Below are positions 25,027 through 56,154 of a stretch of 64,000 bases of DNA, piece after piece. Position numbers and translations under genes: made by a program. The notes under the pieces were generated by a model. That model was not told where the DNA came from. It made no database searches and worked only from the letters and a program-made list of their open reading frames with translations. The stretch's first letter is position 1. The number at the start of each line of letters is the position of its first letter. Source of the DNA: Crocinitomicaceae bacterium (GTDB taxonomy: Bacteria > Bacteroidota > Bacteroidia > Flavobacteriales_D > Crocinitomicaceae); NCBI GenBank assembly GCA_014762645.1, contig JABURP010000067.1, positions 10,926-74,925 on the forward strand. The letters are read 5' to 3'.

Positions 25027-25056
25027 TACTGCTACAAACTGATAAATTAATAAACT

Positions 25057-28052: not shown

Positions 28053-29396
28053 ATGAAAATTTTAACTTCAAGATCAATTCTAACGACACTGTTCACCGTA
28101 TTAGCAAGCGTCAGTTTCTCACAATTGAAAATAACTGGGGAGATAAGGCCCAGAATGGAATACAGACATGGTTTCAAGACACTTCCAGATTCGGGTGCAA
28201 GGCATGCCATTTTCGTTGACCAACGTACACGGCTCAACTTTGACTACGCCAAAAACAAAATTGCCTTCAGAGTTTCTTTGCAGGATGTAAGGGTTTGGGG
28301 TAATCAAAGCCAGTTGGTAGGCAACGAAGATTTCGGAACCTCTATTCACGAAGCGTGGGGGCTGGTAAAATTAACCGATAGCCTTAGCTTGAAGTTTGGA
28401 CGTCAGGAATTAGTATATGACGATCACCGGATTCTTGGTAATGTTGGCTGGGCACAACAAGCCAGAAGCCATGATGCCGCGATATTTCAATGGAACAGAA
28501 ACAAGTTAAAACTACACTTTGGTGGTGCCTACAATCAAAGTGCAGCTAATTTATTTTCGACAAATTACACTGTTTCAAAAAGCTACAAATCAATGCAAAT
28601 GTTATGGGCCAATTACAAATTCAACCCATCCATGAACTTGAGCTTCTTAGCTATGAGTGTAGGTCAGCAGGTAAACTTTACAAACTCTAACGGAGATGCT
28701 GACTATCAGGACAACTATACACTGACAACAGGGACCAGATTTGTTTTTGATAAAAAATCATTTGGTTTTAATTTTAACGGTTATTACCAGTTAGGATCAA
28801 CCAATGAATGGCCGAAAAGAAGTGTAAGTGCTTATGACGTAGGATTAGAAGTCTACTACAAAGTGAAAGAATCCATGAAATTTACATTAGGGCTTGAAAT
28901 GCTTTCTGGAAATAGTCAAACAGATACAACGGCAAGTTATAATGATGTACAGCATGCATTTAATCCATACTTCGGAACAAATCACAAATTCAACGGATTA
29001 ATGGACTATTTCTATGTAGGGAACCACATTGGTAGTGTAGGACTAAACGATTTTTACTTCCGATTTGACTATAAACGAGAAAAATTTAATGCGGGACTCT
29101 GCGCACATGCTTTTATGGCGAATGCCGACATTCTTGATGTTGACTGGCTCATGGATCCAGCAAATACCACCGGTGAAATCAGAGCAATGAGCCCATACCT
29201 GGGTGCTGAAATTGACCTGTTCGGAGGATTTAAAATCGTTGAAGGTGCAAGCTGTAAACTAGGATATTCTCACATGTTGGGAACAAGTTCTATGGAAGCA
29301 CTTAAAGGAGGTGACAGAAATGAAATAGCAAATTGGGGATGGGTAATGATCACACTGAAACCAACCTTATTCGAACAAAAACCAAAAGATAAATAA
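28053..29396 (+). CDS. Outer-membrane porin of the alginate-export family
   Basis: Signal peptide, then ITGEIRPRMEYRHGF, RVWG, and a long aromatic/Gly beta-strand pattern; 447 aa. Confidence 0.65.
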   Translation: MKILTSRSILTTLFTVLASVSFSQLKITGEIRPRMEYRHGFKTLPDSGARHAIFVDQRTRLNFDYAKNKIAFRVSLQDVRVWGNQSQLVGNEDFGTSIHEAWGLVKLTDSLSLKFGRQELVYDDHRILGNVGWAQQARSHDAAIFQWNRNKLKLHFGGAYNQSAANLFSTNYTVSKSYKSMQMLWANYKFNPSMNLSFLAMSVGQQVNFTNSNGDADYQDNYTLTTGTRFVFDKKSFGFNFNGYYQLGSTNEWPKRSVSAYDVGLEVYYKVKESMKFTLGLEMLSGNSQTDTTASYNDVQHAFNPYFGTNHKFNGLMDYFYVGNHIGSVGLNDFYFRFDYKREKFNAGLCAHAFMANADILDVDWLMDPANTTGEIRAMSPYLGAEIDLFGGFKIVEGASCKLGYSHMLGTSSMEALKGGDRNEIANWGWVMITLKPTLFEQKPKDK

Positions 29397-29430
29397 TCTT
29401 CATAGAGGGTGTCTCTTTTCTAAAAAAAAA

Positions 29431-29462
29431 CCTGCAATACTCCTGTGGTATTGCAGGTTTTT
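29431..29462 (+). terminator. Rho-independent terminator closing the narK-porin unit
   Basis: Perfect 10-bp stem CCTGCAATAC / GTATTGCAGG, 7-nt loop, then TTTTT; preceded by an A-run. Confidence 0.85.
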
Positions 29463-29527
29463 ACTGTTGTCAAATCATAAAATTCTGCACAAAATTTCAG
29501 TTAGACTAACAAATATTAGTCTCAATT

Positions 29528-29541
29528 ATGATTTGTATCAT
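29528..29541. promoter_or_regulatory. FNR-type box ATGATTTGTATCAT
   Basis: Perfect match. GAAATTTG (29564-29571) lies 33.5 bp from the dyad centre. Upstream of the hemerythrin-moaA-crp unit. Confidence 0.7.
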
Positions 29542-29598
29542 AATTCGACGCTCAGAAAATGGTGAAATTTGAATATTCACTAACAAATTACTGAGTAA

Positions 29599-30312
29599 AT
29601 GAAAATTGTAGATAAATCAGGAAAGAGAGTTGATGGTAAAGCCTCAAACAAGGCAATCAAGAAGCAGTTGAAAGAAACTGATCCAATCATTAGAAATGCA
29701 GAAAAAGGTGATATAGAGGAATTATCACCCATGGATCCTCCCAGCGGATTTGACGAAGAACGAGTTATTGGAGTTGATTATGAGAACTTCCATGAAAGTC
29801 TGAAGGAGTTTTGTGATGAACACAAAGAGGCACATGCCGTTTGTGAAAGATTTGAAGCAGCACTAAACGATTTCAAAAAAGGAGGATATTATATCACCAC
29901 TGAAATCAATGATGCCTTCAACGAATTTTTTGTAGCCTTTGATGAGGAGGTGATGCCACACAACCGAAAAGAGGAGAAAGGATTATTTATTATCCTTCAG
30001 GAGAAATTATTGGCTTCCGGTGAGCACAGTGTCGGAGATGAAAAGCATACTCCGGTTGATTTAATGGAAGATGAGCATATCAAAATGATTCAGCTTGCTT
30101 CTTTAACATTTAACATGCTTGGTTTGGCAATGAGGCTTAAAGATGAAGTTGATATTGCTATGACTTTTGACCTGGCCTATCACAAGGGGATGGAATTGGT
30201 TGAAATGCTAAAACTGCACATCTTCAGAGAAGATAACACCATCTTCCCTTTAGCGCAGAAACTATTAACCGAAGAGGAATTTGAGAAGTTTTATAATGGA
30301 CAACACCACTAA
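29599..30312 (+). CDS. Hemerythrin (HHE cation-binding) domain protein
   Basis: HNRKEEKGLFIIL, MEDEHIKM, HIFREDNTIFPLAQKLLTEEEF. Confidence 0.7.
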   Translation: MKIVDKSGKRVDGKASNKAIKKQLKETDPIIRNAEKGDIEELSPMDPPSGFDEERVIGVDYENFHESLKEFCDEHKEAHAVCERFEAALNDFKKGGYYITTEINDAFNEFFVAFDEEVMPHNRKEEKGLFIILQEKLLASGEHSVGDEKHTPVDLMEDEHIKMIQLASLTFNMLGLAMRLKDEVDIAMTFDLAYHKGMELVEMLKLHIFREDNTIFPLAQKLLTEEEFEKFYNGQHH

Positions 30313-31294
30313 AATAGTTGATCGCTTTGGTAGGGAACACAAATACTTAAGAATTTCCTTAACAGAACGTTGTAACTTACGTTGTTTTTACTGCATGCCT
30401 GAAGAAGGGGTGAAGCTACGTGAGAAGTCATGTTTTATGACCAGTGAAGAGGTCATTGAACTGGCTGAAAAATTTGTAGCGCTCGGAGTAACCAAAATTC
30501 GACTGACTGGTGGTGAACCGCTTATAAAAAAGGATATTGGGAATATCCTTTCTCAATTGAGTAAGCTGCCAGTTGAACTGGGCATCACTACCAACGGTGT
30601 TTTGGTTGATAAGTACATTGATACCTTTAAGAAAGCCGGAATTAAATCCGTTAATGTCAGCCTGGATTCCTTAAAAGAAGATCGGTTTAATGCCATTTCT
30701 AGAAGAAATTACTTTAATCGGATTAAATCGAATATTGACCTTTTAATTGAGAATGATTTCAATGTTAAAGTCAATGTTGTTCTTATTAAGGATGTAAATG
30801 ATGATGAGATTACAGACTTTATTGACTGGAGCATTATCAAGCCTATTGAAGTACGGTTTATTGAGTTCATGCCCTTTGATGGAAACAAATGGAACTGGGA
30901 TAAATTGGTTTCGAATAAAAAAATTCTTGAGACCGTTCATTCCCACTACGGCGAAGATTATGTAGAAAAAATCAAGGATAAGAAAAACGACACTACCAGA
31001 AGTTATCGCATCAAAAAAGCGAAGGGATCGTTCGGTATTATCAGTTCAATGACCAATCCGTTTTGTGATACATGTAACCGTATCAGGCTTACGGCAGATG
31101 GAAAAATTCGCAATTGTCTTTTTTCAAATTCTGAAGTAGACCTGCTTGGAGCTTTACGCAGAAAACAAAATGTTGAGCAATTGATATTACAATCCATCTA
31201 TAACAAGGAGAAACAACGCGGTGGGATTAACAATTTCGAAACGTCAGATTTCGTTTTAAAGGACGATCGGTCTATGGTAACCATTGGTGGGTAA
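30296..31294 (+). CDS. moaA: GTP 3',8-cyclase (radical SAM Moco biosynthesis protein A)
   Basis: LRISLTERCNLRCFYCMPEEG, RLTGGEPL, C-terminal CDTCNRIRLTADGKIRNC. ATG at 30296 preferred over the listed TTG at 30281. Confidence 0.92.
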   Translation: MDNTTKIVDRFGREHKYLRISLTERCNLRCFYCMPEEGVKLREKSCFMTSEEVIELAEKFVALGVTKIRLTGGEPLIKKDIGNILSQLSKLPVELGITTNGVLVDKYIDTFKKAGIKSVNVSLDSLKEDRFNAISRRNYFNRIKSNIDLLIENDFNVKVNVVLIKDVNDDEITDFIDWSIIKPIEVRFIEFMPFDGNKWNWDKLVSNKKILETVHSHYGEDYVEKIKDKKNDTTRSYRIKKAKGSFGIISSMTNPFCDTCNRIRLTADGKIRNCLFSNSEVDLLGALRRKQNVEQLILQSIYNKEKQRGGINNFETSDFVLKDDRSMVTIGG

Positions 31295-31304
31295 AAAAAT
31301 TTTT

Positions 31305-31964
31305 ATGAATCTATTTTCAAAAAAATATCTAAAAGAGTGGAAGTCTTTTGTTGATCATCATAAAAAAAGCTGCTCCTTTAAAAAAGGTGATGTTATTTTC
31401 TCAGCTGGTGATAAAACAGATGGAATCTACATCATTGATAGTGGCTTTGTAAAAATTACGTATAAGCAGTATGACGGGAATGAATTGCTTATCAGAATAA
31501 CAGGTAAGGGAAATGTTTTAGGGCATAGAGGAATTGGTGGTGATTGGAAATACCCAATTTCTGCTTATGCACTAAGTGACCTTAAACTGTCTTTCATTCC
31601 TATAGACACTTTTAACTCAATTGCTACGACCAATGCTGAATTCTGTTATGAAATGATGATCTTTTTTGCCAATGAACTTAAAAGGTCAGAAAAACGCATT
31701 AGTCAGTTACCTGTTTTAAACAGAATTGCATCAGCCGTCCTTGAGAATTATCAGGTGTTTGGGTTTGATGCGGACGAACCAAATAAGCTTTCATTCACCA
31801 TTAGTCGTAATGATATTTCGAATATGGCCCGAACCACTTATGAATCGGTGATCAGGTCATTGTCAGAATTAAAAAAGATGGGGGTTATAAAACTACAAGG
31901 AAAATCCATCTACATTCTGGACCTCAATAAATTGGAGGAGTTAGCCAATCCAAACGGGAAGTAA
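31305..31964 (+). CDS. Crp/Fnr-family transcriptional regulator without an N-terminal Cys cluster
   Basis: FKKGDVIFSAGDKTDGIYIIDSGFVKI, HTH ARTTYESVIRSLSEL. ATG at 31305 preferred over the listed TTG at 31284. Confidence 0.8.
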   Translation: MNLFSKKYLKEWKSFVDHHKKSCSFKKGDVIFSAGDKTDGIYIIDSGFVKITYKQYDGNELLIRITGKGNVLGHRGIGGDWKYPISAYALSDLKLSFIPIDTFNSIATTNAEFCYEMMIFFANELKRSEKRISQLPVLNRIASAVLENYQVFGFDADEPNKLSFTISRNDISNMARTTYESVIRSLSELKKMGVIKLQGKSIYILDLNKLEELANPNGK

Positions 31965-34835: not shown

Positions 34836-36173
34836 TCACTTTTTTTCTTGCTGATATACAGATTCACCCAGATCTTTGAATAGCTGGTGTACAATAATCG
34901 CCAGGCTAATAAAAAGCAAACAACCCGAGAGAATGAACACGACGAAAATCGGCGAAGAATTCTCATGCATTTGTGCAAAAGATGAGTGTCCGTTTTCTGC
35001 AGACCAAACGGCTTTATAGATGCCCCCGATCACCAAGGACAACCAAAAAATAAAGAGAGATCCGTTGAAGAACAGGAACGCATAGTAAACCAGGGTATTC
35101 TCCACCGTGTTATTTGGATTTAATTTTTTGGCAATAAATGAAACGGATGCCAACAAAATACAGGTGTTAATCCCAATGGTTGTTCCCATAGAATGTGCTA
35201 CTGTGATATGGGTACCGTGTGTATAGTAATTAATTGTCGGTATAGACATAAGTAAGGCCAGCAACAGATTGACAAAGACCCAAAACTCACTTGCCATCAG
35301 AAAACGATAAGGCATGGCGTAAATTTTTCGTTCAGCCTGCCCTAAATTTTTGATAAAGATGTAAACGATATTCAAGAACAAGATCCACTCGGTCATGCTT
35401 ATACCGTAAGCCACATATCGTATCCATGGTGCTGTTGGAACGATATACGTATGATGCGCCCAACCGAACATTAAATTCGTCAATCCTAAAAAGTAGAAAA
35501 AGAACACCTTTTTGCCCCTGGCGAGCTCTCCATCTTTCTTCATTTTTGACATCAGATAAATGGCCGTACCGTATACCAGCATGTTCCAACTCCCCACAAA
35601 AGAGCCGTATGATTTCCACTGAATCGTCAGGTCTTTGATGAAATCACTGCGGATATCTGTAATGGCCCAAAAGTGTGCTTCAGTCAAGTGAAAGATCATA
35701 AATAGTATACCTGTCCCCCACATCCAAAAATATACTGGACCATCTTTGATCTTCTTCCAAACTACTTTGAAATAATTTATCCCAAATAAAACCCAACCAA
35801 GCAACACCGGAATAATAAGCACTGGCAAGAACTCCAGGTATTCTCTACCTCCCATCACACCAAAGATGTAACACATATAAATGACTACTCCCAGGCATAG
35901 AAATAATACCAGATGCGTTTTTTGTAATCTCTCTGAATAGAGCTTCAAACGCTCTACCCTGGTTAAGTAATAATAAATTCCACCTGTAGCTGTAAGCACT
36001 ATCCATGAAACAGCACTTGTTGTATGAATAGGTCGTAACCGGTTAAACGGAATAATGTCTTTAAGCAAATCTGGGTTGATGTACACAATGGATATGATCA
36101 TCCCGATAAATCCTGCAATCAATAAGGCAATTAAACCCGCAAGTAAAAATAGAATAGAGACATTTAATTTCAT
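34836..36173 (-). CDS. norB: NorB-like heme-copper oxidase superfamily subunit I (putative nitric oxide reductase large subunit)
   Basis: 12-TM protein of 445 aa. RPIHTTSAVSW, FHLTEAHFW, GWAHHTYIV and INYYTHGTHITVAH match the recalled cNOR NorB landmarks (VHTN, VHLWVEG, GHHYF, NYYTHGTQLTAAHGH). Confidence 0.6.
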   Translation of the reverse strand: MKLNVSILFLLAGLIALLIAGFIGMIISIVYINPDLLKDIIPFNRLRPIHTTSAVSWIVLTATGGIYYYLTRVERLKLYSERLQKTHLVLFLCLGVVIYMCYIFGVMGGREYLEFLPVLIIPVLLGWVLFGINYFKVVWKKIKDGPVYFWMWGTGILFMIFHLTEAHFWAITDIRSDFIKDLTIQWKSYGSFVGSWNMLVYGTAIYLMSKMKKDGELARGKKVFFFYFLGLTNLMFGWAHHTYIVPTAPWIRYVAYGISMTEWILFLNIVYIFIKNLGQAERKIYAMPYRFLMASEFWVFVNLLLALLMSIPTINYYTHGTHITVAHSMGTTIGINTCILLASVSFIAKKLNPNNTVENTLVYYAFLFFNGSLFIFWLSLVIGGIYKAVWSAENGHSSFAQMHENSSPIFVVFILSGCLLFISLAIIVHQLFKDLGESVYQQEKK

Positions 36174-36181
36174 TGCTTCAC

Positions 36182-36607
36182 TTATTTATACTTGATGGTT
36201 ACCCAACCGTCTTTAGAAAATTCTGAATCATAATTGGGGTAATAGCCCGTTGCGTTTACGTGTTCCAGGTAAGATATTATTGCATTCTGTTCTTCTGTCG
36301 AAAAATCAAACTGAGGCATAGATTTTACACCGCTATTTAGAAAAGTCCTCACATAATCGGACCCTTTGGCTGGGTCAGATATGACATTTGTCAGGTCTGG
36401 ACCAAGATATCCACCCAAACCATACAATTGATGACAAGCCGTACAGTTATTTTCTTGCCATAATTGTTCACCCCGGATAGCTTCTTTCGACATTCTTGGT
36501 GCAGAAGATGAAGATGTCTCTTCCCCCATGTATAGTACGGCATTGTAGACGGTAAAGACACTCACCAATGCAATTAAAACTATAAAATTCCCTTTGCCCT
36601 TGTACAT
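36182..36607 (-). CDS. norC: NorC-like membrane-anchored monoheme cytochrome c
   Basis: TM anchor (FIVLIALVSVFTVYNAVLYM). CTACHQLYGLGGYLGPDLT fits the NorC pattern CxxCH..G.G.Y..PDL. ATG at 36607 preferred because the listed TTG extension (to 36688) contains an FNR-type box. Confidence 0.6.
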   Translation of the reverse strand: MYKGKGNFIVLIALVSVFTVYNAVLYMGEETSSSSAPRMSKEAIRGEQLWQENNCTACHQLYGLGGYLGPDLTNVISDPAKGSDYVRTFLNSGVKSMPQFDFSTEEQNAIISYLEHVNATGYYPNYDSEFSKDGWVTIKYK

Positions 36608-36652
36608 AAATATATCTCCTGCTAAAAATAGTGGTGAATGCGGCCACCAAAA

Positions 36653-36666
36653 ATGATATACATCAT
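36653..36666. promoter_or_regulatory. FNR-type box ATGATATACATCAT shared by divergent promoters
   Basis: Perfect match. TATTTTTA (36623-36630, minus) and GAACTTTG (36689-36696, plus) each lie 33.5 bp from the dyad centre. Confidence 0.65.
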
Positions 36667-36757
36667 ATAAATGCTGATCAATATTCAAGAACTTTGAGTA
36701 AATGAACTTCGACTTGTGGAAACAACAGAAAGAAATGCCAAATTATCGAAAGATTCC

Positions 36758-45230: not shown

Positions 45231-45268
45231 TAATAGGTCTGCAGTCAGGATGGCGGCAGGCCTATTTT
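45231..45268 (+). terminator. Rho-independent terminator between convergent nrdJ and modC
   Basis: 11-bp stem AATAGGTCTGC / GCAGGCCTATT (one G-U pair), 13-nt loop, then TTTTT. Confidence 0.7.
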
Positions 45269-46140
45269 TCTAATCGTATGACAACCGGGTTAAACGCTTT
45301 TGATGTCAGCATAATCTTATCGCCAATTGATAGATCCCGAACATCATCTTCTGTAACAATTACTGAAAACAGACTATTTTGCGACAGTACATCCAGGCGA
45401 TAGACAATATCAGCTTTTGTGATGGAAACAACTTCCCCTACCAGGTTCATTTTACTGCTGATATTTTCATTGAAAAACACCGTTCTGACATCCCCTCTTT
45501 TGGTTATTATTCCATTGTCAAGGCACATCACCTGTTCGGATACATACAATATCTCTGAAAGTTGATGTGAAACCATAAATACAGTGAACTGATACTTTTG
45601 ATGCACCTTTATCAGGTACTTGAGTAACTTAAACCTGATTTGATCATCCAGGGAAGAAAAAGGTTCATCCAATAATAAAACCTTTGGCTGTTGAACCAGA
45701 GCTCTGGCCAATGCCACTCGTTGCTTTTGACCTCCGGATAACGTTGCTGGCTTTCTTTCCAGTAGCTCCCCTAATTCAACGATATCAATCAGTTCCTCAA
45801 TAATTTGCTTTGAAGCTCCTTTCGGAAGACCAAATTCCAGATTTTCCCTGATGCTCATATTAGGGAAGAGTGCATAATCCTGAAAAACATAACCAATGGA
45901 TCGCTTTTGAGGGGACAAGTCAATTTTTTGTACAGCATCAAACCAAACCGTATCACCCATTACTATTTTTCCATTGTCCGGTTTTTCCAAACCAGCCAAC
46001 AATCTGAAAAATGTAGTTTTTCCTGATCCTGAAGGACCATAAACAGTAACAACCTGAGCAGATCTTGCCTCAAAATCCAACTCAAGATTGAACGTGTTTC
46101 CGTTCGAAACCAACTTTTTATTTATACTAATTGAAATCAA
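45262..46140 (-). CDS. modC: Molybdate ABC transporter ATP-binding protein with C-terminal TOBE domain
   Basis: GPSGSGKTT, LSGGQKQRVALARAL, LLLDEPFSSLD; operon context with modAB. Confidence 0.88.
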   Translation of the reverse strand: MISISINKKLVSNGNTFNLELDFEARSAQVVTVYGPSGSGKTTFFRLLAGLEKPDNGKIVMGDTVWFDAVQKIDLSPQKRSIGYVFQDYALFPNMSIRENLEFGLPKGASKQIIEELIDIVELGELLERKPATLSGGQKQRVALARALVQQPKVLLLDEPFSSLDDQIRFKLLKYLIKVHQKYQFTVFMVSHQLSEILYVSEQVMCLDNGIITKRGDVRTVFFNENISSKMNLVGEVVSITKADIVYRLDVLSQNSLFSVIVTEDDVRDLSIGDKIMLTSKAFNPVVIRLEK

Positions 46141-46805
46141 TTTAACAGATTGGATGATTTATTTTTTCTCAAATTAACTATCAGTAAGATGAGGAACATA
46201 ACTATTAACAATGCCAGTGAATACAAGTGCGCGGCACCATAATTCAGTGATTCCACTTCATCATAAATGGCGATAGACATCACTTTGGTTTGATCGGGTA
46301 TGTTTCCGCCTATCATTAATACCACACCGAATTCTCCAATGGTATGCGCAAAAGTTAACACGATTCCTGTGATCAGTGAGCTTTTCATATTCGGTAAAAT
46401 CACCTTTGCTATGGTCGTCCATTTCGACTTCCCCATTAGACTTGATGCCTCCCTATATGATCTGGGCACCCCAGAAAACCCTGACTGTAAAGGCTGCACC
46501 ATGAACGGCAAGCTGTAAATTACAGATCCAATAACCAATCCCGGAAAGGAAAACACCAAACGAATTCCTAAATAATCATTTAAAAATGATCCGAACCAAC
46601 TTTCAGGACTGAAGGCTATCAACAAATAAAAACCCAGTACCGTCGGTGGGAGCACTAAAGGTAAACTCACAATTGACTCTATGACACCTTTGTATTTGGC
46701 TCTGGAATAAGACAACCAGTAGGCTAGTGGGATGGATATGACGAATAGGATGACTGTTGTAACAACAGCCAGCAGCAACGTCAATTTTACCGGTCCCCAT
46801 TCCAT
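46137..46805 (-). CDS. modB: Molybdate ABC transporter permease
   Basis: 222 aa, about 5-6 TM helices, EAA-type loop (YREASSLMGKSKWTTIAKVILP). Confidence 0.85.
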   Translation of the reverse strand: MEWGPVKLTLLLAVVTTVILFVISIPLAYWLSYSRAKYKGVIESIVSLPLVLPPTVLGFYLLIAFSPESWFGSFLNDYLGIRLVFSFPGLVIGSVIYSLPFMVQPLQSGFSGVPRSYREASSLMGKSKWTTIAKVILPNMKSSLITGIVLTFAHTIGEFGVVLMIGGNIPDQTKVMSIAIYDEVESLNYGAAHLYSLALLIVMFLILLIVNLRKNKSSNLLN

Positions 46806-47203
46806 TATGTAGAAATTATTATTTCATTCGACTTGATCAGGGCCCAAACGTTATCTCCTTGTTTAACATCTAGTTCCTGTACTAATTCCGTCAGTAATAC
46901 TGCTTTGATCATACCTCCCTGGCAGTCCATTTCTACCTGAGAAAGTATCTCTCCAATTTCTATGCGTTTTACGGTACATTCCAACTTGTTAGATATACCA
47001 ACTTTTACCGATTCTTCTTTAGCCAGTACAACTTCAGTTTCTTTGAATAACACATGAACTTCCTCATCAGCTTTTACCTTAAATGCCTCATTTTCTGTGT
47101 TGACGATCAGGGCTTTTATCAAATTTCCGGAAACTTCTAGCTGAACAACTGAAATTCCATGATTTGATTTTACACTTGATACGGTTGCTTTAAGTTTATT
47201 CAT
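46805..47203 (-). CDS. Di-TOBE (Mop-like) molybdate-binding protein without a DNA-binding domain
   Basis: 132 aa, two tandem TOBE-like halves (NKLKATVSSVKSN.., NKLECTVKRIEIG..); inserted between modA and modB. Confidence 0.7.
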   Translation of the reverse strand: MNKLKATVSSVKSNHGISVVQLEVSGNLIKALIVNTENEAFKVKADEEVHVLFKETEVVLAKEESVKVGISNKLECTVKRIEIGEILSQVEMDCQGGMIKAVLLTELVQELDVKQGDNVWALIKSNEIIIST

Positions 47204-47945
47204 GACCTGGGATTAAATATCCATAATTTTGTAAGATATCTATAGCCGGATCGGAAAATAAAAATTCGTAGAACTTTCTGGCAGCTTCTTTTTTATCCGA
47301 GTTTTTAATGATCACAGCCGCTTGTTCAATGGGGTCATGATCAGTATTATCCACAGCTATCCAGTTACCCGTATTTTTCATCTTTTCACTACTAATGGTA
47401 GAATAAGATGTAAAACCAACATCTACAGCCTTTGTCGTAATCAGGTGATTACATTGCGAAATGCTTTCGGCGTATACCAGCTTGGGCAGTACAGCATCAT
47501 AGATCCCTTCATTTTTCAGCACACTCACTGCGGCTTCTCCGTAAGGCGCATGTTTTGGGTTGGCAATTGCAATTTTTTCAATAGCACCTGATGTCAGGGA
47601 ATCCAAACTGGGAATAAAGTTTTTGCAGGTCCACAGAACCAATCTCCCATGAGCGTATACTTTTGGTTCGTCCTCCGTGAGGTTTTTATCAAACAAGTAT
47701 TGCGGGTATTTCGTATTTGCAGAAATAAATACATCATACGGTGCACCCTGCTCAATTTGCGCAGAAAGTTTCCCGGACGATCCAATAATCAGATCAATTG
47801 CAATTCCTTCTTCTTTCTCAAATTTATCCTGGATTTCCTCAACAGCGAACTGCATATTGGCAGAAGTAGCGACAACAAGTTTTGACTTATTACTACATCC
47901 AATAAGTACAAAAACAGCTAGTATTGAGTAAACAATTTGACGCAT
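47196..47945 (-). CDS. modA: Molybdate-binding periplasmic lipoprotein
   Basis: Lipobox (VLIGC), VATSANM, YDVFISANTKYP. Confidence 0.85.
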   Translation of the reverse strand: MRQIVYSILAVFVLIGCSNKSKLVVATSANMQFAVEEIQDKFEKEEGIAIDLIIGSSGKLSAQIEQGAPYDVFISANTKYPQYLFDKNLTEDEPKVYAHGRLVLWTCKNFIPSLDSLTSGAIEKIAIANPKHAPYGEAAVSVLKNEGIYDAVLPKLVYAESISQCNHLITTKAVDVGFTSYSTISSEKMKNTGNWIAVDNTDHDPIEQAAVIIKNSDKKEAARKFYEFLFSDPAIDILQNYGYLIPGHE

Positions 47946-48065: not shown

Positions 48066-49493
48066 TTAATGATTCCTTGGTCTTTTCCCTATGTTATGTC
48101 TGCTAGTGTGTCTCATGGCTTTTCTATCCCAGTTCCAAATAACCACCTGGTATTTTCTCCATAGATAATCAATAGGAGCAACCAAAAAGTGCATAAACCT
48201 GCTGAACGGGATTATGGCTATGATTAAGAATGCCGAGACAACGTGAATCTGTACCCACATAGGTGCAACTGAAATCGCTTCAATGTCTGGGTTAAATGAA
48301 AATATCGATCTCAAATAAGGCGTAAGGACACTGGCAAACCAGGTTGAACCCCATCTTACAAAGAAGGCAACACTTAATCCGGATACGATCTGAATCATAA
48401 GTACAGTGTATACCATCATATCCATTCGGTTAGCCACAACTTGCAAGCTTCGTGTGGTCAATCTTCTTTTTATTAATAGTATTAATCCCAGTAAAGCGGC
48501 TAACCCAAATGCAAATGAACTGATTTCAAGGATTAACAATCGTACTGGATGTCCATTAAATGCTATTAAGGTTGACGGGAACAAGAAGGCTATTAAGTGA
48601 CCAAAGAACAAGATGATAAGTCCCCAGTGAAATGGTTGTGATCCCCAGAACAACTTTTTACCCTCAAGAAATTGAGTTGACAATGAGGATACTTTAAATC
48701 CGTTCTTGGTATATCGGTAAATAGACCCAATGATGAAAATAGCGAAGGCAACATAAGGGAATACGGCAAACATAATTCCATTTAATTGCCCTGTATTATT
48801 CTGTAATCCGATCGATAACAAATAAAACAGCCCCACCATAATCCCAAGGATTCCAGCAAAAAGCACCACATAATTCCTTGTAGCATGAGCTTCAGGAGCT
48901 ATACCAAGTTCCATTAATCGTTTTTTCGTATTTCTGATCATTCTGAATACGAAGAACAGGATAACCGCCATGATCAATATTGTCCATTTGATCGCCGTTT
49001 TTTCCCCTTCCGTTAACAATGGTTCATCTGCCTCAGCAGCTGTTGCAGTTGTAGCTGTCGCTTCTCCTCCTCCTGCATCTGCTGGTGCAGCAACTTCTAA
49101 ATAATCAATGATGCTTACAACCTCAGCTTCTGATAACTGGGTAAAAGGAGGCATCATCATTTTATTGTAGTCCTCATAAACCTGTACGGCATCCGGGTCT
49201 CCAGAATTAATTAATTCAGTTGAATTAGTAATCCATGAAACGAGCCATTCTTTGGATCTTTTTTCAGTGATTCCTGCCAATCCCGGTCCGGTTGATTCCG
49301 TAGAAGATAAAAGGTGACATGAATTACAGTATGTTTTAAACAGTTCTTCACCTGACTGCGCATTAGTGCTATTAGAGATGAAAAAACACGAAATGGTCAA
49401 TACCAAAAACGAATAGAATCGTTTATTTACAATTGATCGGAATTTATAACTAGACATAACGTTCACTTTTTTATTTATTTTACAACTGCTCAT
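48066..49493 (-). CDS. narI: Fusion of a periplasmic monoheme cytochrome c domain, two extra TM helices and the nitrate reductase gamma subunit (NarI)
   Basis: Signal peptide, CNSCH heme site with a MMMPPF Met region, Ala/Thr-rich linker. The NarI core then aligns to the recalled E. coli NarI (FPYVAFAIFIIGSIYRY, PFHWGLIILFFGHLIAFLFP, IIPFSRFMHFLVAPIDYLWRKYQ). The start may be Met13 (49457). Confidence 0.8.
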   Translation of the reverse strand: MSSCKINKKVNVMSSYKFRSIVNKRFYSFLVLTISCFFISNSTNAQSGEELFKTYCNSCHLLSSTESTGPGLAGITEKRSKEWLVSWITNSTELINSGDPDAVQVYEDYNKMMMPPFTQLSEAEVVSIIDYLEVAAPADAGGGEATATTATAAEADEPLLTEGEKTAIKWTILIMAVILFFVFRMIRNTKKRLMELGIAPEAHATRNYVVLFAGILGIMVGLFYLLSIGLQNNTGQLNGIMFAVFPYVAFAIFIIGSIYRYTKNGFKVSSLSTQFLEGKKLFWGSQPFHWGLIILFFGHLIAFLFPSTLIAFNGHPVRLLILEISSFAFGLAALLGLILLIKRRLTTRSLQVVANRMDMMVYTVLMIQIVSGLSVAFFVRWGSTWFASVLTPYLRSIFSFNPDIEAISVAPMWVQIHVVSAFLIIAIIPFSRFMHFLVAPIDYLWRKYQVVIWNWDRKAMRHTSRHNIGKRPRNH

Positions 49494-49497
49494 GCGA

Positions 49498-50184
49498 TTA
49501 TTTTTTATCTGATGGTTTCGATTCTACACATGACCCTTCGCAATTCGGCAAGAACGAACTCAAAGGATCTGCATTAATCTCTTTTCCTTCGAACTCACTT
49601 ACCTGAAAATCTATCTGCAGAACACTCAAGGTTGCTTCAATAGCATACTTGTAGATATTTCTGTTTTGTAGATTTTCCTGAATCACCACCTTTTGTTTCT
49701 TTTTGCGTACTTTATCTTTTAGTTGCATTCTTGCGGTGTCAAACTCTTTCACCATCATTTCAAGAGCAGGTATGTACATTCTGACCACAAGCTCTTCTTT
49801 AAAGGCCTCATCTTCAATCAGAGGAAGCAATGTCAACGCATTAGGTAAATTATCCGCTAACTCGACACCACAATCATTATTCACCTTGCGTTGCTCATTT
49901 TTCATTTGCACCAAAAACTCCCCTCTCTTATAGTCCTCAGCAAATAGCACATATCCCAGATCCAAATAGCATATTGCCTGAATATGAAATGTCTTACCAA
50001 ATAGTTCTTCTATCTCAATTAAGCTCATGGTGTTAATCACCTCAACAAATGGAAGAACCTGTTGATAAACTCCCGGATAGTGCTCCTTTAAGTAAGATGC
50101 GCACTCATTCACCTGTTCAACATATCCTTCTTGAGGATAGCGGAACAAGTTGGCCAGCAGGTTATATTGATTTTGTTTATTCAT
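49498..50184 (-). CDS. narJ: NarJ/TorD-like nitrate reductase assembly chaperone
   Basis: LLANLFRYPQEGY, ELFGKTF, LADNLPNALTLLPL; positioned between narH and narI. Confidence 0.7.
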   Translation of the reverse strand: MNKQNQYNLLANLFRYPQEGYVEQVNECASYLKEHYPGVYQQVLPFVEVINTMSLIEIEELFGKTFHIQAICYLDLGYVLFAEDYKRGEFLVQMKNEQRKVNNDCGVELADNLPNALTLLPLIEDEAFKEELVVRMYIPALEMMVKEFDTARMQLKDKVRKKKQKVVIQENLQNRNIYKYAIEATLSVLQIDFQVSEFEGKEINADPLSSFLPNCEGSCVESKPSDKK

Positions 50185-50203
50185 ATTAGTTTCAAATTAA
50201 CGC

Positions 50204-51697
50204 CTATACGCCTCTGGCTGGTTTTTCTTTAAATCCAAACCCTGTTTCACCTTTGGCATCAGCTGTTGCTTCTAGCATTTCAATTGATTCTTCACGGTGT
50301 GCCGGAGGAATCACAAAGCGCTCTTCAAAAGTGGCCAGAGATGTCAAACGGAAAATTGCGTTTGCTGTATCCTTATCAACTTTAGCATTCGCCATAAGCT
50401 CAGCAACTTCATCTTTAGACAAGTCTCCCACTGTTTCGTTTCTTCTGTGATATTTAACACTCAACAATTTTTGGTACACTTCCGTGATTACCTGTGTGTC
50501 TCCATTTGAGAATAGAGATGCTAGATACTTCACCGGCACCCTGTTTTGATCCACTTTAGGGAACAAGTCAGTAGAAGCAGTTTGATAGTTTGAGTTCTCG
50601 TCAACCTGTGCCATTGCCGGTAGCATTGGCGGTACATAAAACAAGTTAGGTAGTGTTCTGAACTCAGGGTGAAGCGGTAATGCTATTCCCCATTTTTTCA
50701 CAAACTTATATACTGGTGAATCCTGGGCAGCTTTAATCGTAGAATCATGAATTCCATTTTTTCTAGCCGCTTCAATCACTTTTGGATTGGTAGGATCAAC
50801 ATAAATATCCAACTGGCTTTGTAGTAAATCATTATCCGAAGCGTTAGCTACTTCATGAATTTTAGAAGCATCATATAGCATTACACCCAGGTATCTGATT
50901 CGGCCTACACAAGAGTGCATACAAGCCGGTGCTTGTCCAGACTCCAATCTTGGATAGCACAGGATACATTTTTCAGATTTACCGGTATGCCAGTTGTAGT
51001 ATGATTTTTTATACGGGCAAGCTGTCACACACATTCTCCAGGCTCTACATCTCTCCTGATTAATTAGTACAACTCCATCTTCACCTCTCTTGTACAAAGC
51101 TCCGGACGGGCATGAAGCAACACAAGCAGGGTTTAGACAGTGATTACAAATACGCGGTAAATAGTGCAACGTCATTTTCTCTAACTGGAACATAGCTTCT
51201 TGCTCTGAACCTGTCAGGTCTTTAAAGTTGACATCATTTCTTGCGTAGTCAGGTGATCCACCTAAATCATCATCCCAGTTGGGTCCTGATTTAATATCAA
51301 TTGGTTCACCAGTGATCAGTGACACTGCCCTACCGATTGGCTGATCATTTCCTTCAGGTGCAGTGAAAAGATCACTGTATTTATAACACCATGGGTGGTA
51401 ATAATCTTCCAACACTGGCATATTTGGGTTGTGAAAGATGTTCTTCAGGCCTTTTAATTTACCAGCACCTTTCAGCACCAGCTTGTCGCCTTTTTTCTCC
51501 CATCCACCTTTGTAAATATCCTGATCTTCCCACTTGGTAGGATAACCAGTTCCCGGTTTTGTTTCTACGTTATTCCACCACATGTATTCCGCACCTCTTC
51601 TGTCCGTCCAAACGTTTTTACATGCGACCGAGCAGGTATGACATCCGATACACTTATCGAGATGAAAAACCATTGAAACTTGTGCCCTAATATCCAT
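50204..51697 (-). CDS. narH: Respiratory nitrate reductase beta subunit
   Basis: CIGCHTCSVACKNVW, CNHCLNPACVASCPSGA, CRAWRMCVTACPYKK, CILCYPR. Confidence 0.95.
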   Translation of the reverse strand: MDIRAQVSMVFHLDKCIGCHTCSVACKNVWTDRRGAEYMWWNNVETKPGTGYPTKWEDQDIYKGGWEKKGDKLVLKGAGKLKGLKNIFHNPNMPVLEDYYHPWCYKYSDLFTAPEGNDQPIGRAVSLITGEPIDIKSGPNWDDDLGGSPDYARNDVNFKDLTGSEQEAMFQLEKMTLHYLPRICNHCLNPACVASCPSGALYKRGEDGVVLINQERCRAWRMCVTACPYKKSYYNWHTGKSEKCILCYPRLESGQAPACMHSCVGRIRYLGVMLYDASKIHEVANASDNDLLQSQLDIYVDPTNPKVIEAARKNGIHDSTIKAAQDSPVYKFVKKWGIALPLHPEFRTLPNLFYVPPMLPAMAQVDENSNYQTASTDLFPKVDQNRVPVKYLASLFSNGDTQVITEVYQKLLSVKYHRRNETVGDLSKDEVAELMANAKVDKDTANAIFRLTSLATFEERFVIPPAHREESIEMLEATADAKGETGFGFKEKPARGV

Positions 51698-51721
51698 AAT
51701 CTTTGATTTAATCTGTACTAA

Positions 51722-54700
51722 TTAGTATTCTACTTTGTCCATTTTTCTCACCAATACGTGAGTATCTCTATTCACCCCTACAGGTCCCCAATAATTGAAG
51801 TGGTATGTAAACTGTCCGTAACCACCACACATTAGATTCGGTTTAAGGTGAACCCGGGTAAATGAGTTATTCATTCCTCCTCGTCTTGGCTCTCCATTTT
51901 TACCTCGTCTAATTTGAGACTTCGGTATGTTGTAGGTTCTTTCTACAGCGTGATACACGATACATACTCCTTTCGGAATTCGTGCACTCACACAAGCTCG
52001 TGCTACGTACACACCATGGTCATTATATACCTCAACGTGATCGTTGTCTTTAATTCCGAGTTCTTCTGCATCTTTTTCACTCATCCAGCATGGTTCGTTA
52101 CCCCTTGATAAGGTTAACATTCGCAGGGTATCACCATAAGTTGAGTGGATGTGCCATTTACCGTGAGGTGTAAGACAGTTCAACATTTTTGCTTTACCGT
52201 CATTCACTGTTTTTCTCAAATCTCCGTACGCTTCCGGAGTTGGAGATGGCTTATACGTTGACAGGTGTTCACCAAATGCTATATAAGCGTCATGATCCAG
52301 GTAAAAGTGCTGACGTCCGGTTAGGGTTCGCCATGGCACAAACATGTCTACATTGTAGGTGTAGGCCGCGTAGGTTCTTCCCTCATGCATTAACCCTGAC
52401 CAAAGAGGTGAGGAATTATACCTTTTGGGTTGTGCCTGTAAATCGCGGTACTCAATATTCACCTCCAAATACGGTTCTCCCAGCTCAGCTATTTCCTTCA
52501 CACCAATCTTCTCTGACATGTTTTTGTAACATCTGTCAGCAAGTGTACCATTGGTTAAGGTGGATAGTTTTAAAATGGCGTTGATTGCTTCCGTATCATC
52601 TTTCAAAGAAGGATACTCTGTACCATCATCCCATTTTTGAATGTGTTGTCTGTGCGCCAACATCTCTTCGTAAACATCTTCACACATGTAGTGATTTCCG
52701 TGCGCTCCCAGTCCATTTTCTGCAACACCTTTTCCAAGAGAAATAAACTTATCATAGATCTTCGTATAATCTCTCTCTTTGAAAACAATCTTATGCATTG
52801 TTTTACCAGGAATTGCTTCACACTCTCCTTTGTACCAATCTTTCAATTCCGGTTGACTGATCTCATCTTTTGAATCGTGCGATAGTGGTTGATTCACCAC
52901 ATCTTTCATCACATTCGGAAGATATTTAGGCGCCATTTCCTGAACTTTCTTTGCAAGTCCCTGGAAAATTTGCCAGTCAGTTTTAGCTTCCCACACCGGA
53001 GGAATCGCCTCTGAAAGTGGGTGGATGAAAGAGTGCATATCGGTTGAGTTGATATCCGCTTTCTCGTACCATGAAGCTGTTGGTAAAACAATGTCAGAAT
53101 ACAAGGCTGAAGTATCCATTCTAAAGTTGATATCAATCACCAGGTCCATTTTACCTCTGGCACCTTCTTTCTTAAATTCGATATCTTCAACAATGTCTCC
53201 AGCTACTTCATCTGCAATTTTGTTGGTATGCGTTCCCAGATAGTGATCCAGGAAGTATTCATGCCCTTTTGCTGAAGTACCAATGGCATTCCCTCTCCAG
53301 ATAAACCAAACTCTTGGGAAGTTTATTTCTTCATCAGGTTGAACAACTGAGTGTTTCAAATCACCTGATTTAAGTTGATTTACAATATATTCTCTCTTTT
53401 CATCATCCGTAGAACAACCAGCAGCTTCTGCATCTTTTATAATATCAAAATTGCTTTTGTTGTACTGAGGATAGTACGGCATCCAACCATTCCTAACTGC
53501 CTTCACACACCAGTCTGCAGAGTGCAGATTAGCTAATTTATTATCTGGCGAGCTGTTGTAGTATTTCTGGTTACCGTCGTATCTCCACTGGCTTGAATTA
53601 ATGTAGTGCCAAATTGGTCCTTGTTGTAGTCTTGGAGCTGTACCCCAATCTTTAGAACTCATAATGGTTGACCACGAATCCATTGGTGCCAGTTTCTCCT
53701 GACCAACATAGTGGTTCATTCCACCACCATTTTTACCGTTACATCCGGTAAGCATTTGGGCCATGATCGCAGAACGATACATTAAATTGTTATGGAACCA
53801 GTGGTTAATGGCGGCTCCTACAATCACCATACAAGCACCTTCTGTTGATTCAGCTGTACTTGCCCATTCACGCGCTAACTGAATCACTTCTTTACGACCA
53901 ATTCCCGTAAATATTTCTTGCCATGCAGGTGTGTACGCCTGGTCTTTATCATCATACGAAGTTGGATAAGCACCTTCCAGTCCTCTGCCAACACCATACT
54001 GTGCCATTGTTACATCATAGATAGTTGTTACCGGAATCTTTTCACCATCATTTGTGGTGATATATTTTACCGGAACTCCTCTCATCACTTTTTGATCCAA
54101 TCCGTACTCTGTAAATTCAACCTGAAGAACATCTTCTTTCGAATCAATTAGCGTCAACTCCGGATCGTACTCGTTACCTGATTCACCATCTTTGAAATTC
54201 AGGTTCCATTTACCTTTTTCATCCTGCCATCTGTATCCTGATGTTCCCATTGGAGATACAAGGCCACCACTTTTCGAATCAAAATTCAAAAATTTCCAGT
54301 CACCGTTTTCAGCATCTTTAAACTGAGACACCTCATTGGCACGAACCATTCTTCCTGGTAGGTATTTATCTCCTTCTTTATTTAATTTGATAAGGAAAGG
54401 ACAATCTGTAAACCTTTTCACGTAGTCCATGAAGTAAGGCACTTGTCTGTCAACGTGGAACTCTTTAAGAATTACATGTGTGACCGCCATCCAGAACGCA
54501 CCGTCTGATCCCTGGTGAACAGGAATCCACTGATCAGCATGTTTAGCCACCATACTAAAGTCAGGTGACATAACCACTGTTTTGGTTCCGTTGTGTCTTG
54601 CCTCAGAGAAGAAGTGAATATCTGGTGTTCTTGTCATCCCCAGGTTAGCACCCATGGATACAATGAACTTGGATTTGTACCAGTCAGCAGATTCACAAAC

Positions 54701-55363
54701 ATCCGTTTGTTCTCCCCAAATTTCAGGGAATGCATTCGGTAAGTCACAATACCAGTCATAGAAACTCAGGTTAACACCTCCCATTAATTGAAGGTATCGA
54801 GCTCCTGAAGCATAACTTAACATACTCATAGCCGGAATCGGTGAGAAACCAATCAACCTATCTGGCCCATATTTTTGAATGGTATAGATATTTGAAGCTG
54901 CAATTAGCTCAGTTATCTCATCCCAGTGAACTCTTCTAAATCCACCTTTACCTCTTGCATTTTGATATCTCTTTCTGTTGTTTGGACTTGCTTGTAAGTT
55001 AGCCCATGCCTGAACCGGATCTCCTCCTGCTTTTTCTTTTTCCTCTCTAAAAAGGTCTATCAAAGCTCCTCTTACAATTGGGTACTTCACCCTAATCGGG
55101 CTATATAAATACCAGGAATAAGAAATCCCTCTTTGACATCCTCTAGGCTCATACGGAGGAACCTCTTTGTTGAACTGAGGATAGTCAAGTTGTTGTAGTT
55201 CCCATACGACAATACCATCTTTTACGTGAATTGCCCATGAACATCCACCAGTACAGTTTACACCATGAGTACTTCTGACAACTTTGTCATACTGCCATCT
55301 GTTGCGGTAGAACTCTTCCCATTTACGGGTTTTAGGTGATATTATATCTTCGATCCAACTCAT
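51722..55363 (-). CDS. narG: Respiratory nitrate reductase alpha subunit (cytoplasm-facing type, no Tat signal)
   Basis: 1213 aa. FS0 motif [11 protein letters not shown]. The N-terminus ([27 protein letters not shown]) lacks an RRxF twin-arginine motif. Confidence 0.95.
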
Positions 55364-55392
55364 AATTGTTGTATATTAATGTTCGTATTGAA

Positions 55393-56067
55393 TTAAAATT
55401 TTGCGTCCCAGGCCTTACTTTGCCTTTTGAAAATTGCTTGTTTCGTCATTCTTCTTTTTCTTTTCATCCAGAGTATCTGTATCAATCCTAAAATGACCAA
55501 CAGACCGAAACCACCTCCGAAATAAAACAGCTCGTTACCATTAGCTACTGTTGCTGCTTCACTGTCATTTTTATTTTCAAGCGTTTCTTTAAAAAATGCT
55601 GTTAAATCAACCCTTTCTTGTTCGGTTAATGGGTTATCGGTATAAGATGATGCCATGGCAGGAAAAGGAGGAGCCATTAACCATCCGATTAAACCGTCTC
55701 CGAGTCGTTCATAAACATCTGTCAAATCCTTTGCAAATAACCCACCAGGAATTACACCTTCAGCATTCACATTATGACAGGTAACACAAGCAGGGCCGCC
55801 TTCAGCAAATCGCTCTTCACCTTGAAATAGTGCCTTGCCATTTTCAGCATCTGGAATTAGAATTACGGTCTCTTCTACAGTTGCCGTTTCATCCGCGACT
55901 ACCGCTGTTTCATTTGTGGTTTCATCAGTGTTTTCAACTACTGCAGTGTCATTCTCTGTTGTAACACTATCACCATCATCCTGTGAGAAAACGGTGGTGC
56001 TTAACATAAGAGCCGATACTATAATTGCAACTCGCATAAAAGCATTTAAGGACTTAGCTCGTTTCAT
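55393..56067 (-). CDS. Membrane-anchored monoheme cytochrome c, first gene of the nar operon (NarC-like position)
   Basis: Signal peptide, acidic Thr/Glu/Val-rich linker, a single CVTCH, Met-containing PFPAMAS, C-terminal TM anchor (FGLLVILGLIQILWM). Confidence 0.75.
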   Translation of the reverse strand: MKRAKSLNAFMRVAIIVSALMLSTTVFSQDDGDSVTTENDTAVVENTDETTNETAVVADETATVEETVILIPDAENGKALFQGEERFAEGGPACVTCHNVNAEGVIPGGLFAKDLTDVYERLGDGLIGWLMAPPFPAMASSYTDNPLTEQERVDLTAFFKETLENKNDSEAATVANGNELFYFGGGFGLLVILGLIQILWMKRKRRMTKQAIFKRQSKAWDAKF

Positions 56068-56140: not shown

Positions 56141-56154
56141 ATGATATATATCAT
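56141..56154. promoter_or_regulatory. FNR-type box ATGATATATATCAT upstream of the nar operon
   Basis: Perfect match. A minus-strand GAAATTTG (56111-56118) lies 33.5 bp from the dyad centre. It is 74 bp upstream of the start at 56067. Confidence 0.7.

Follow-up and report, generated by a model that had tools for sequence, protein, structure and literature searches.

The nar operon described here lies on the minus strand of a 64,000-nucleotide stretch of DNA from a Crocinitomicaceae bacterium (contig JABURP010000067.1, positions 10,926 to 74,925), referred to in its entirety as the window. By homology, it is an operon for a membrane-bound respiratory nitrate reductase of the Thermus NarCGHJI type, derived from a Crocinitomicaceae-like member of the Bacteroidota from mangrove sediment. 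As judged from its sequence, the two haem-c domains of NarC are carried in this enzyme on two polypeptides: domain 2 and its membrane anchor make up a small cytochrome, designated NarC', and NarI carries the counterpart of domain 1 as a fusion.

A nitrate reductase operon of the Thermus type

A preliminary description of this DNA had placed five genes in a row on the minus strand, and every open reading frame (ORF) was found where it had been placed, with intergenic gaps of 29, 24, 19 and 4 nucleotides (nt). In the order of transcription, these are:

55393..56067, minus strand: narC', a 224-residue monohaem cytochrome c, counterpart of NarC domain 2 with its membrane anchor
51722..55363, minus strand: narG, the catalytic molybdopterin subunit, predicted to face the cytoplasm (TIGR01580)
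50204..51697, minus strand: narH, the iron-sulfur subunit (TIGR01660)
49498..50184, minus strand: a narJ-like gene for a putative assembly chaperone, assigned by position and by similarity to a Thermus TorD-family protein
48066..49493, minus strand: the cytochrome c::NarI fusion of 475 residues, a continuous ORF with both domains above their Pfam cut-offs

The operon is colinear with Thermus narCGHJI, all five components being matched in the same order (identity to the Thermus counterparts: NarG 57%, NarH 56%, NarJ-like 28% with an E-value (E) of 8e-12, and NarI 39%). The two haem-c domains find their counterparts in different parts of Thermus thermophilus NarC, with NarC' aligning to residues 120-208 (domain 2) at 42% identity over 89 residues (E 1e-15) and the fused domain aligning to residues 20-102 (domain 1) at 33% identity (E 1e-9). 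The Thermus NarC gene itself is located directly upstream of narG-narH-narJ-narI. Among 80 related loci, gathered by a scan of one genome per species, a cytochrome c gene lies directly 5' of narG in all 60 that have a complete upstream ORF, as it does across the 29-nt gap in the window. The match to domain 2 and this gene position bear out the earlier proposal that the first gene is NarC-like.

NarG and NarH are clear members of their equivalog families, scoring 1469 bits against TIGR01580 (cut-off 1084) and 641 bits against TIGR01660 (cut-off 524), respectively. The first 40 residues of NarG contain neither an RR motif nor a hydrophobic signal; the catalytic NarGH part is thus predicted to face the cytoplasm, as had been suggested from the lack of a twin-arginine signal, and two NarK-family transporters are encoded elsewhere in the window. 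The NarJ-like protein scores only 30 bits against TIGR00684 (cut-off 59) and has no Pfam match, and its Thermus relative is the TorD-family gene at the same position. A narJ-like gene is found between narH and narI in every related locus with a long enough contig (those of L035, L039 and L075 are too short). The N-terminus of NarG (window 55285-55363) is short, with the match beginning at position 27 of the narG family model, such that about 26 first positions are missing. This short N-terminus is common to all of the related loci, and the missing stretch corresponds to the NarJ-binding region in E. coli.

The cytochrome c::NarI fusion

The ORF of the fusion is uninterrupted over 475 residues, and the database gene call starts at Met13 to give a protein of 463 residues. 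A cytochrome c domain is recognized by PF00034 at residues 46-133 and, together with PF13442, over residues 44-133, and the NarI part by PF02665 over residues 239-453 (206 bits) and by TIGR00351 (125 bits, cut-off 105). With no stop codon or frameshift between the two parts, the fusion proposed in the preliminary description is a true one. Its features are as follows:

49359..49493, minus strand: signal peptide or signal anchor (residues 1-45, ...STNA|QSGEE), identified heuristically
49092..49358, minus strand: monohaem cytochrome c domain (residues 46-134), the counterpart of NarC domain 1 (PF00034, PF13442, Thermus NarC)
49314-49328, minus strand: CNSCH haem motif, with Met114 as the probable axial ligand
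48993..49091, minus strand: flexible linker rich in Ala, Thr, Gly and Glu (residues 135-167, about 33 residues), with low model confidence (pLDDT, the predicted local distance difference test)
48810..48992, minus strand: extra hairpin of two transmembrane (TM) helices (TM 168-186, basic loop 187-209, TM 210-228), from hydropathy and loop charges
48066..48785, minus strand: NarI core (residues 237-475) with five TM helices (PF02665, TIGR00351, alignment with E. coli NarI)

The N-terminus has a basic start, a hydrophobic stretch at residues 27-41 and the pattern A|Q-x-GE that is common to dihaem NarC proteins. Lys and Arg residues are distributed among the loops as expected of a protein with its basic segments inside, with five in loop 187-209 (in), none in loop 229-239 (out) and ten in the C-terminal tail 431-475 (in). 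By the positive-inside rule, the fusion is thus predicted to span the membrane seven times with the N-terminus out and the C-terminus in, so that the cytochrome c domain (residues 46-134) and the linker (135-167) would lie outside, in the periplasm, ahead of the hairpin and the five NarI helices (residues 240-430). E. coli NarI likewise has its N-terminus out and its C-terminus in, and c-type haem is attached on the periplasmic side only. The hydropathy profile and loop charges agree with the earlier suggestion that the cytochrome c domain is periplasmic and that the two added helices preserve the NarI topology.

The residues expected to hold the haems are strictly conserved: Cys56, Cys59, His60 and Met114 of the haem c site and His289, His299, His417 and His435 of the haem b sites are invariant in 76 aligned homologues, and the four His residues align with His56, His66, His187 and His205 of E. 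coli NarI (3egw_C). Arg318, also invariant, aligns with Lys86 of E. coli NarI, a residue of the quinol site.

A model of the fusion by AlphaFold2 has a mean pLDDT of 79.5 and a predicted TM-score (pTM) of 0.65, with the haem domain at approximately 90 and the membrane part confidently modeled. Linker residues 141-155 fall below a pLDDT of 50 and are predicted to be disordered. Searches with this model using Foldseek retrieved E. coli NarI (3ir6_C, TM-score 0.78) and a cytochrome c from Rhodothermus marinus (3cp5, TM-score 0.71), and among the structures searched none combined NarI with a cytochrome c. The cytoplasmic loop of the hairpin (window 48876-48908, residues 196-206) is itself conserved, with Gly197, His203 and Asn207 kept in at least 90% of the 76 fusions and a consensus of GxHxxPHxxxNY.

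The first gene product, NarC'

NarC' carries a single CxxCH motif, CVTCH at residues 94-98, within a domain recognized by PF00034 (E 8e-5), and Cys94, Cys97, His98 and Met138 are invariant among 47 homologues. The features of this protein are:

55984..56067, minus strand: predicted signal peptide (residues 1-28, ...TVFS|QDD), identified heuristically from a basic N-terminus, a hydrophobic core and small residues at -3 and -1
55852..55983, minus strand: acidic tail rich in Thr and Glu (residues 29-72), a positional match to the inter-domain linker of dihaem NarC
55774..55788, minus strand: haem c motif CVTCH, checked by translation and invariant in the alignment
55474..55530, minus strand: C-terminal TM anchor (residues 180-198, hydropathy 2.0)

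With a signal peptide and a TM anchor, NarC' is predicted to be both periplasmic and membrane-bound. The anchor is followed by a basic cytoplasmic tail (10 Lys or Arg, one Asp or Glu), and AlphaFold2 places residues 166-223 in one long helix. The acidic tail of approximately 44 residues is predicted to be disordered (pLDDT 45-53 over residues 30-60). It aligns with the linker between domains 1 and 2 of the NarC proteins designated type B below, a match given little weight on account of the low-complexity sequence. A Foldseek search with the NarC' model returned no significant neighbour (best E 0.5, TM-score of about 0.44), which implies that domain 2 has no close relative among solved structures. 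Given its single CxxCH motif, and with the second haem domain located on NarI, NarC' is by its sequence features a relative of NarC rather than a canonical dihaem NarC.

Three layouts across related loci

The gene order of cytochrome c, narG, narH, narJ and narI is kept in the 80 related loci wherever the contig is long enough, and the fused architecture is found in 21 of them, at 46-80% identity to the window fusion. Both domains are likewise present in 120 of 120 homologue clusters among the matches listed. Three types of NarI are encountered, given here with their typical hosts:

Type A, 460-481 residues: cytochrome c, hairpin and NarI; Crocinitomicaceae, Fluviicola, Putridiphycobacter, Parvicellaceae, Cyclobacteriaceae and Roseivirgaceae
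Type B, about 320 residues: hairpin and NarI, with no CxxCH; other Flavobacteriales
Type C, about 241 residues: plain NarI; Chitinophagales, other Bacteroidia, Chlorobiota, one Gracilimonas genome and two Gammaproteobacteria genomes

The type of NarI is matched by the upstream cytochrome. Type-A loci have a monohaem protein of 184-252 residues (16 of 16), and loci of types B and C, with an unfused NarI, have a dihaem protein of 278-321 residues (44 of 45). The association between fusion and monohaem NarC (16/0 vs 1/44) has a Fisher p of 8e-14, calculated without phylogenetic correction. Together with the matches of each domain to NarC, these counts uphold the earlier proposal that the two haem-c domains are split over two proteins; the complex thus appears to keep two c haems, one of which has moved to another polypeptide.

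The exception, L077 (2544-3095), from a Gracilimonas metagenome genome, is the sole locus to combine a monohaem NarC (183 residues) with a plain NarI of 243 residues. No second cytochrome c gene is seen there within 2 kb upstream, and the locus apparently encodes a one-haem version. Variation in the other direction is displayed by NarC variants with three or four CxxCH motifs (P0124, P0126, P0149, P0157, P0173, P0183, P0208 and P0252), in which extra copies of a domain-1-type cytochrome precede domain 2 and the anchor.

Further arrangements occur at the 3' end of the operon. In L021 (8356-10488) and L078 (8326-9756), narJ runs into an in-frame narI with no stop codon to give a NarJ::(cytochrome c)::NarI ORF, which could be genuine or due to misassembly. 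A free-standing gene lies directly 3' of a plain narI in L041 (9744-10469) and L042 (5820-6536), loci that also have a dihaem NarC, and its product has, as a protein of its own, the N-terminal layout of the fusion, in which a signal peptide and a cytochrome c domain are followed by a linker and two TM helices. In L052 (10027-14446) and L053 (10030-14449), narI is followed after about 300 nt by actA (426 residues; cytochrome c, hairpin and pentahaem body) and an ORF of 1038 residues at the actB position, which makes the nar and Alternative Complex III operons adjacent in these two loci.

Origin of the hairpin and the fused haem domain

The hairpin of the window fusion is a homologue of the one at the N-terminus of type-B NarI (z 12.8-15.2), and a tree of the NarI core unites types A and B (bootstrap 99) in a single clade that branches from within type C. 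Parsimony most readily accommodates the order C to B to A. A plain NarI with five TM helices and a dihaem NarC (type C) would have come first, NarI would next have gained the hairpin to become a protein of seven TM helices (type B), and the haem domain would then have joined NarI with the loss of domain 1 from NarC (type A). The clade of types A and B is poorly resolved internally, and in a tree of NarG and NarH the two types are interleaved, such that this order of events rests on parsimony; monophyly of the fusion in the NarG and NarH tree was considered and dropped for the same interleaving of fused and hairpin-only forms.

The fused haem domain resembles both domain 1 of type-B NarC (mean identity 44%, maximum 51%) and the N-terminal domain of ActA (mean 39%, maximum 49%). 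In a PDB search, it matched ActA of Flavobacterium johnsoniae (6btm_A) with E 1.4e-23 and 3cp5 with E 1.5e-9. A tree of 105 cytochrome c domains (95 columns), in which fusion domains were placed together with NarC domain 1, ActA N-terminal domains and small tethered cytochromes, has bootstraps near 0, too low to decide the origin of the fused domain. The phmmer alignment of the fusion to 6btm_A extends through the TM region. When the hairpins alone were compared against shuffled sequences, however, the scores were at the level of chance for both ActA hairpins (z 0.9) and for the free-standing relatives (z -0.3 to 1.4). A shared module of cytochrome c and hairpin in ActA and NarI was therefore dropped, and only the haem domain is regarded as homologous.

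The fused type of domain is a tethered carrier that has been put to use in many proteins: when 1.84 billion representative proteins were searched, 4310 clusters containing it were returned, and the best 150 of these, sorted by motif, include ActA (with one or two copies), tethered cytochromes of 170-240 residues, di-, tri- and tetrahaem NarC, and NarI.

Proposed role and alternative explanations

The reading favoured here, on balance a probable one, is that a Thermus-type Nar with a split NarC acts as a quinol:cytochrome c branch point when the cell is denitrifying. Menaquinol would be oxidised at the periplasmic side of NarI and its electrons passed to the outer haem b, from where they would either proceed through NarH to NarG for the reduction of nitrate or exit sideways. 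The sideways path would lead through the anchored haem c of NarC' and through the haem c tethered to NarI, which is probably mobile, and would end at cytochrome-c-dependent acceptors of the periplasm or membrane, for instance the NorCB-like enzyme encoded in the window. The same role has been proposed for Thermus NarC and, in Flavobacterium ActA, for the sixth haem, which is mobile. The reading is favoured by the disordered linker of the fusion and its ActA-like haem domain, by the properties of Thermus NarC, and by the NorCB-like, narK, CRP/FNR and molybdenum cofactor genes of the window. A bolder form of the proposal, tentative though possible, would have the tethered haem domain act as a swinging shuttle, so that in denitrifying Bacteroidota Nar would stand in for complex III as the menaquinol:cytochrome c oxidoreductase and feed the reductases of nitric oxide (NO), nitrite and nitrous oxide (N2O). 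If this were true, the three layouts would represent a natural evolutionary experiment on the docking site of NarC domain 1 on NarI.

A number of observations detract from the branch-point reading. Which way electrons flow through the c haems is a conclusion drawn solely by analogy with Thermus and ActA, and the AlphaFold2 model of the fusion, being a single chain with no haems, gives no haem-haem distances. Among the putative acceptors, the NorB-like protein bears only a distant relation to the NorB structures solved so far (4xyd_A, E 2.7e-12; 3o0r_B, E 6.5e-6), and no gene for a nitrite or N2O reductase was found among the window ORFs scanned with Pfam and NCBIfam. The Fisher statistic for the association of fusion and monohaem NarC ignores shared ancestry, and to these points are added the three trees described above, with a poorly resolved A/B clade, interleaved types and near-zero bootstraps.

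An explanation without relevant electron flow would have the c-haem domains serve only to fold, mature and anchor NarGHI, with the fusion stabilising their contact. Thermus narC mutants indeed have a soluble, immature NarG and lose growth on nitrate, and NarC binds NarI in a two-hybrid assay (PMC7694296); one domain fused to NarI would also fit a permanent, obligatory contact. However, Thermus NarC is needed for nitrite and NO respiration as well, with the distal haem mattering most (PMC7694296). The CxxCH motif and probable axial Met are invariant in both domains (76 and 47 homologues), which points to selection on a redox cofactor, and a linker of about 33 residues that is predicted to be disordered fits a mobile carrier more readily than a rigid scaffold. 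A purely structural role is thus regarded as unlikely.

Electrons may conversely enter the enzyme through the c haems, with a reduced periplasmic cytochrome c delivering them by way of the c haems and NarI to nitrate, and with Alternative Complex III or a periplasmic dehydrogenase as the donor. The nitrate/nitrite couple lies at +420 mV, well above typical c-type cytochromes, and such entry would be downhill overall, but the transfer from a c haem to a b haem would be uphill. In support of entry, actA-actB directly follows narI in L052 and L053, the fused domain is homologous to the carrier domain of ActA, and the nitrite oxidoreductase (NXR) of Nitrobacter is said to use the same wire in the opposite direction (PMC7694296). 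Nevertheless, this adjacency of nar and act is confined to 2 of the 80 loci, and the invariant Arg318 at the position of E. coli Lys86, along with the four haem b ligands, suggests that quinol oxidation has been retained. Electron entry is regarded as improbable.

The complete reversal of the enzyme to an NXR-like function, with nitrite oxidised in the cytoplasm and a terminal oxidase receiving the electrons by way of NarI and the c haems, is very unlikely. The hosts belong to heterotrophic lineages of the Bacteroidota, the catalytic subunit scores well above the narG equivalog cut-off, a CRP/FNR-type box is conserved upstream of narC, and the neighbouring narK, CRP/FNR, NO-stress and NorCB-like genes form a context of anaerobic nitrate and NO respiration. 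This possibility draws its support from a very similar Nitrobacter cluster with a NarC-like cytochrome c, which works as an NXR (PMC7694296). Finally, a missed stop, a frameshift or a chimeric assembly with a separate gene in the 5' part can be dismissed almost entirely, even with the window taken from a metagenome assembly and free-standing genes for a cytochrome c, linker and two TM helices lying beside narI in L041 and L042, given a continuous ORF and an architecture that recurs in 21 independent species-level loci and in 120 of 120 of the clusters listed, from several data sources.

Genomic context and regulation

Two features flank the operon:

56141..56154, minus strand: palindrome ATGATATATATCAT, a candidate CRP/FNR-type box (TGAT-N4-ATCA core), 74-87 nt upstream of narC'
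45262..47945, minus strand: modA, a TOBE-domain gene, modB and modC, putatively for molybdate uptake, 120 nt downstream (Pfam SBP_bac_11 and TOBE)

Of 60 related loci, 45 have the TGAT-N4-ATCA core in the 250 nt that precede narC, relative to a background of 0.06 per 250 nt. The strict FNR consensus, TTGAT-N4-ATCAA, was also considered and set aside, as its 12 matches in the window compare with 8 expected, which is not an enrichment, and none lies upstream of the operon. A modA gene follows narI in 6 related loci, and the window further encodes MoeA, MoaC/MoaB and MoaA of molybdenum cofactor synthesis, two hemerythrin/RIC-type proteins, three CRP/FNR-family proteins, a porin-like protein and the two NarK-family transporters.

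On the minus strand at 34836-36688, a 445-residue protein of the haem-copper oxidase family (NorB-like) adjoins a 168-residue cytochrome c. The NorB-like protein has no match to the NCBIfam NorB models, and by their sequences the pair may constitute an NO reductase of a divergent kind that depends on cytochrome c. In 7 related loci, NorCB-like genes are found no more than 10 kb away from nar, and 2 more loci have partial matches.

The plus strand at 23458-31964 encodes two NarK proteins, a 398-residue ORF, a porin-like protein (Alginate_exp), a hemerythrin-domain protein, MoaA and a CRP/FNR regulator, and genes for the porin, hemerythrin, MoaA and FNR proteins recur beside nar in many related loci. 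The 398-residue ORF (26737-27933, plus strand), which separates narK2 from the porin-like gene, was matched by neither Pfam nor NCBIfam, and tblastn returned no match in any of the 80 loci. The minus strand at 21301-22029 and 16748-18186, upstream of the genes for the molybdenum cofactor, encodes a di-iron repair protein of the ScdA/RIC type and two further CRP-family cyclic-nucleotide-binding proteins, which suggests a larger island for nitrate respiration and NO stress.

The window has a G+C content of 36-42%. Its DNA is almost completely present in a mangrove metagenome run, and a search of sequencing runs found it in DNA metagenomes only (mangrove and soil). The closest genome locus is that of a Crocinitomicaceae metagenome genome, with 96% identity in NarG and 80% in the fusion.

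Distribution and significance

The preliminary description knew of no characterisation of this layout. Neither the fusion nor NarC in Bacteroidota was found described when the literature was searched for them (a paper on Bacillus nar met in the search has plain NarI only), and to that extent the claim stands, but the architecture itself is widespread in databases. The layout is common in uncultured Bacteroidota metagenome genomes, with no cultured host revealed by the names of the cluster members and no record of genomic context returned by an exact look-up of the window's own protein, and represents a variant of the known NarC-containing Nar rather than a new system. In the databases, the fusion is labeled only as the nitrate reductase gamma subunit (NarI), and the domain-2 cytochrome is mostly labeled hypothetical, usually with no recorded Pfam match. 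As a consequence of these labels, metagenome surveys of denitrification miss this electron branch.

Nar of the NarC type is common beyond Thermus, with representatives in Flavobacteriales, Cytophagales, Chitinophagales, Chlorobiota, Balneolota-like and some Gammaproteobacteria metagenome genomes. Its three interchangeable layouts always keep two c haems, with one exception in 61 loci, a constancy that speaks for both haems having a function in the enzyme. The layouts also place domain 1 at the periplasmic face of NarI, and they provide natural constructs with which to ask if Nar serves in addition as a quinol:cytochrome c oxidoreductase where a bacterium has no bc1 complex.

Comparison with known systems

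The name NarC is shared with a cytochrome b of haloarchaea, with which the Thermus protein should not be confused. Thermus NarC is a membrane-bound periplasmic dihaem cytochrome c, the first gene product of narCGHJIKT, that interacts with NarI and is needed for an active, membrane-attached enzyme; under repression of complex III, growth on nitrite or NO depends on it too (PMC7694296). Thermus is the sole organism in which NarC has been studied, and its role there is still called not well defined (PMC7694296). The system of the window resembles NarCGHJI of Thermus in its first cytochrome c gene, in the homology of all components and in its cytoplasm-facing NarGH, and both cytochromes have a signal peptide, c haem domains of the class I type and a C-terminal TM anchor. 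The two differ in that Thermus NarC has two haem domains and its NarI is a plain protein of 229 residues, whereas NarC' has one haem domain and the window NarI carries the other, with a linker and two extra TM helices. By analogy, the covalent fusion of one domain to NarI would lend indirect support to the proximity of NarC and NarI. The plain dihaem NarC of the Thermus kind is also found in 44 related loci of Bacteroidota, Chlorobiota and others. One of these relatives (L070) matches Thermus NarC over both domains with E 2e-20, and a dihaem relative used in tblastn matched 14 Thermus plasmids, with the match on pTHTHE1601 lying directly 5' of narG-narH-(TorD-family)-narI.

Relative to the NarGHI of E. 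coli (1q16, 3egw), the NarI core of the window aligns over residues 4-221 (E 3e-23) with the same layout of the redox loop, but the E. coli enzyme lacks c-type haem, NarC and the extra helices. The dihaem cytochrome cc of the actinobacterial bc1-aa3 supercomplex, QcrC, provides another parallel, with tandem class I c domains and a C-terminal anchor that wire a quinol oxidase to its acceptor, the partner of QcrC being a Rieske/cytochrome b complex. NarC' matches domain 2 and the anchor of QcrC weakly (7q21_C, E 4.6e-5; NF050122, E 5e-4), and with 19 bits against a cut-off of 200, membership in that family was rejected and the likeness is treated as an analogy only.

An architectural parallel to the fusion is ActA of F. 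johnsoniae (6BTM), whose N-terminal domain carries the sixth haem, was not resolved in the cryo-EM map and has been proposed to carry electrons to the aa3 oxidase as a mobile domain anchored in the membrane (PMC8552683). The haem domains are homologous, with approximately 50% identity by eye over the domain, and both proteins proceed from a signal peptide through a cytochrome c domain, a low-complexity linker and two TM helices to the body of a quinol-oxidising complex. In ActA, this body is pentahaem, whereas in the fusion it is NarI and a single CxxCH is present. With hairpin scores of z ~1, the likeness to ActA is one of homology in the haem domain and only of architecture in the tether.

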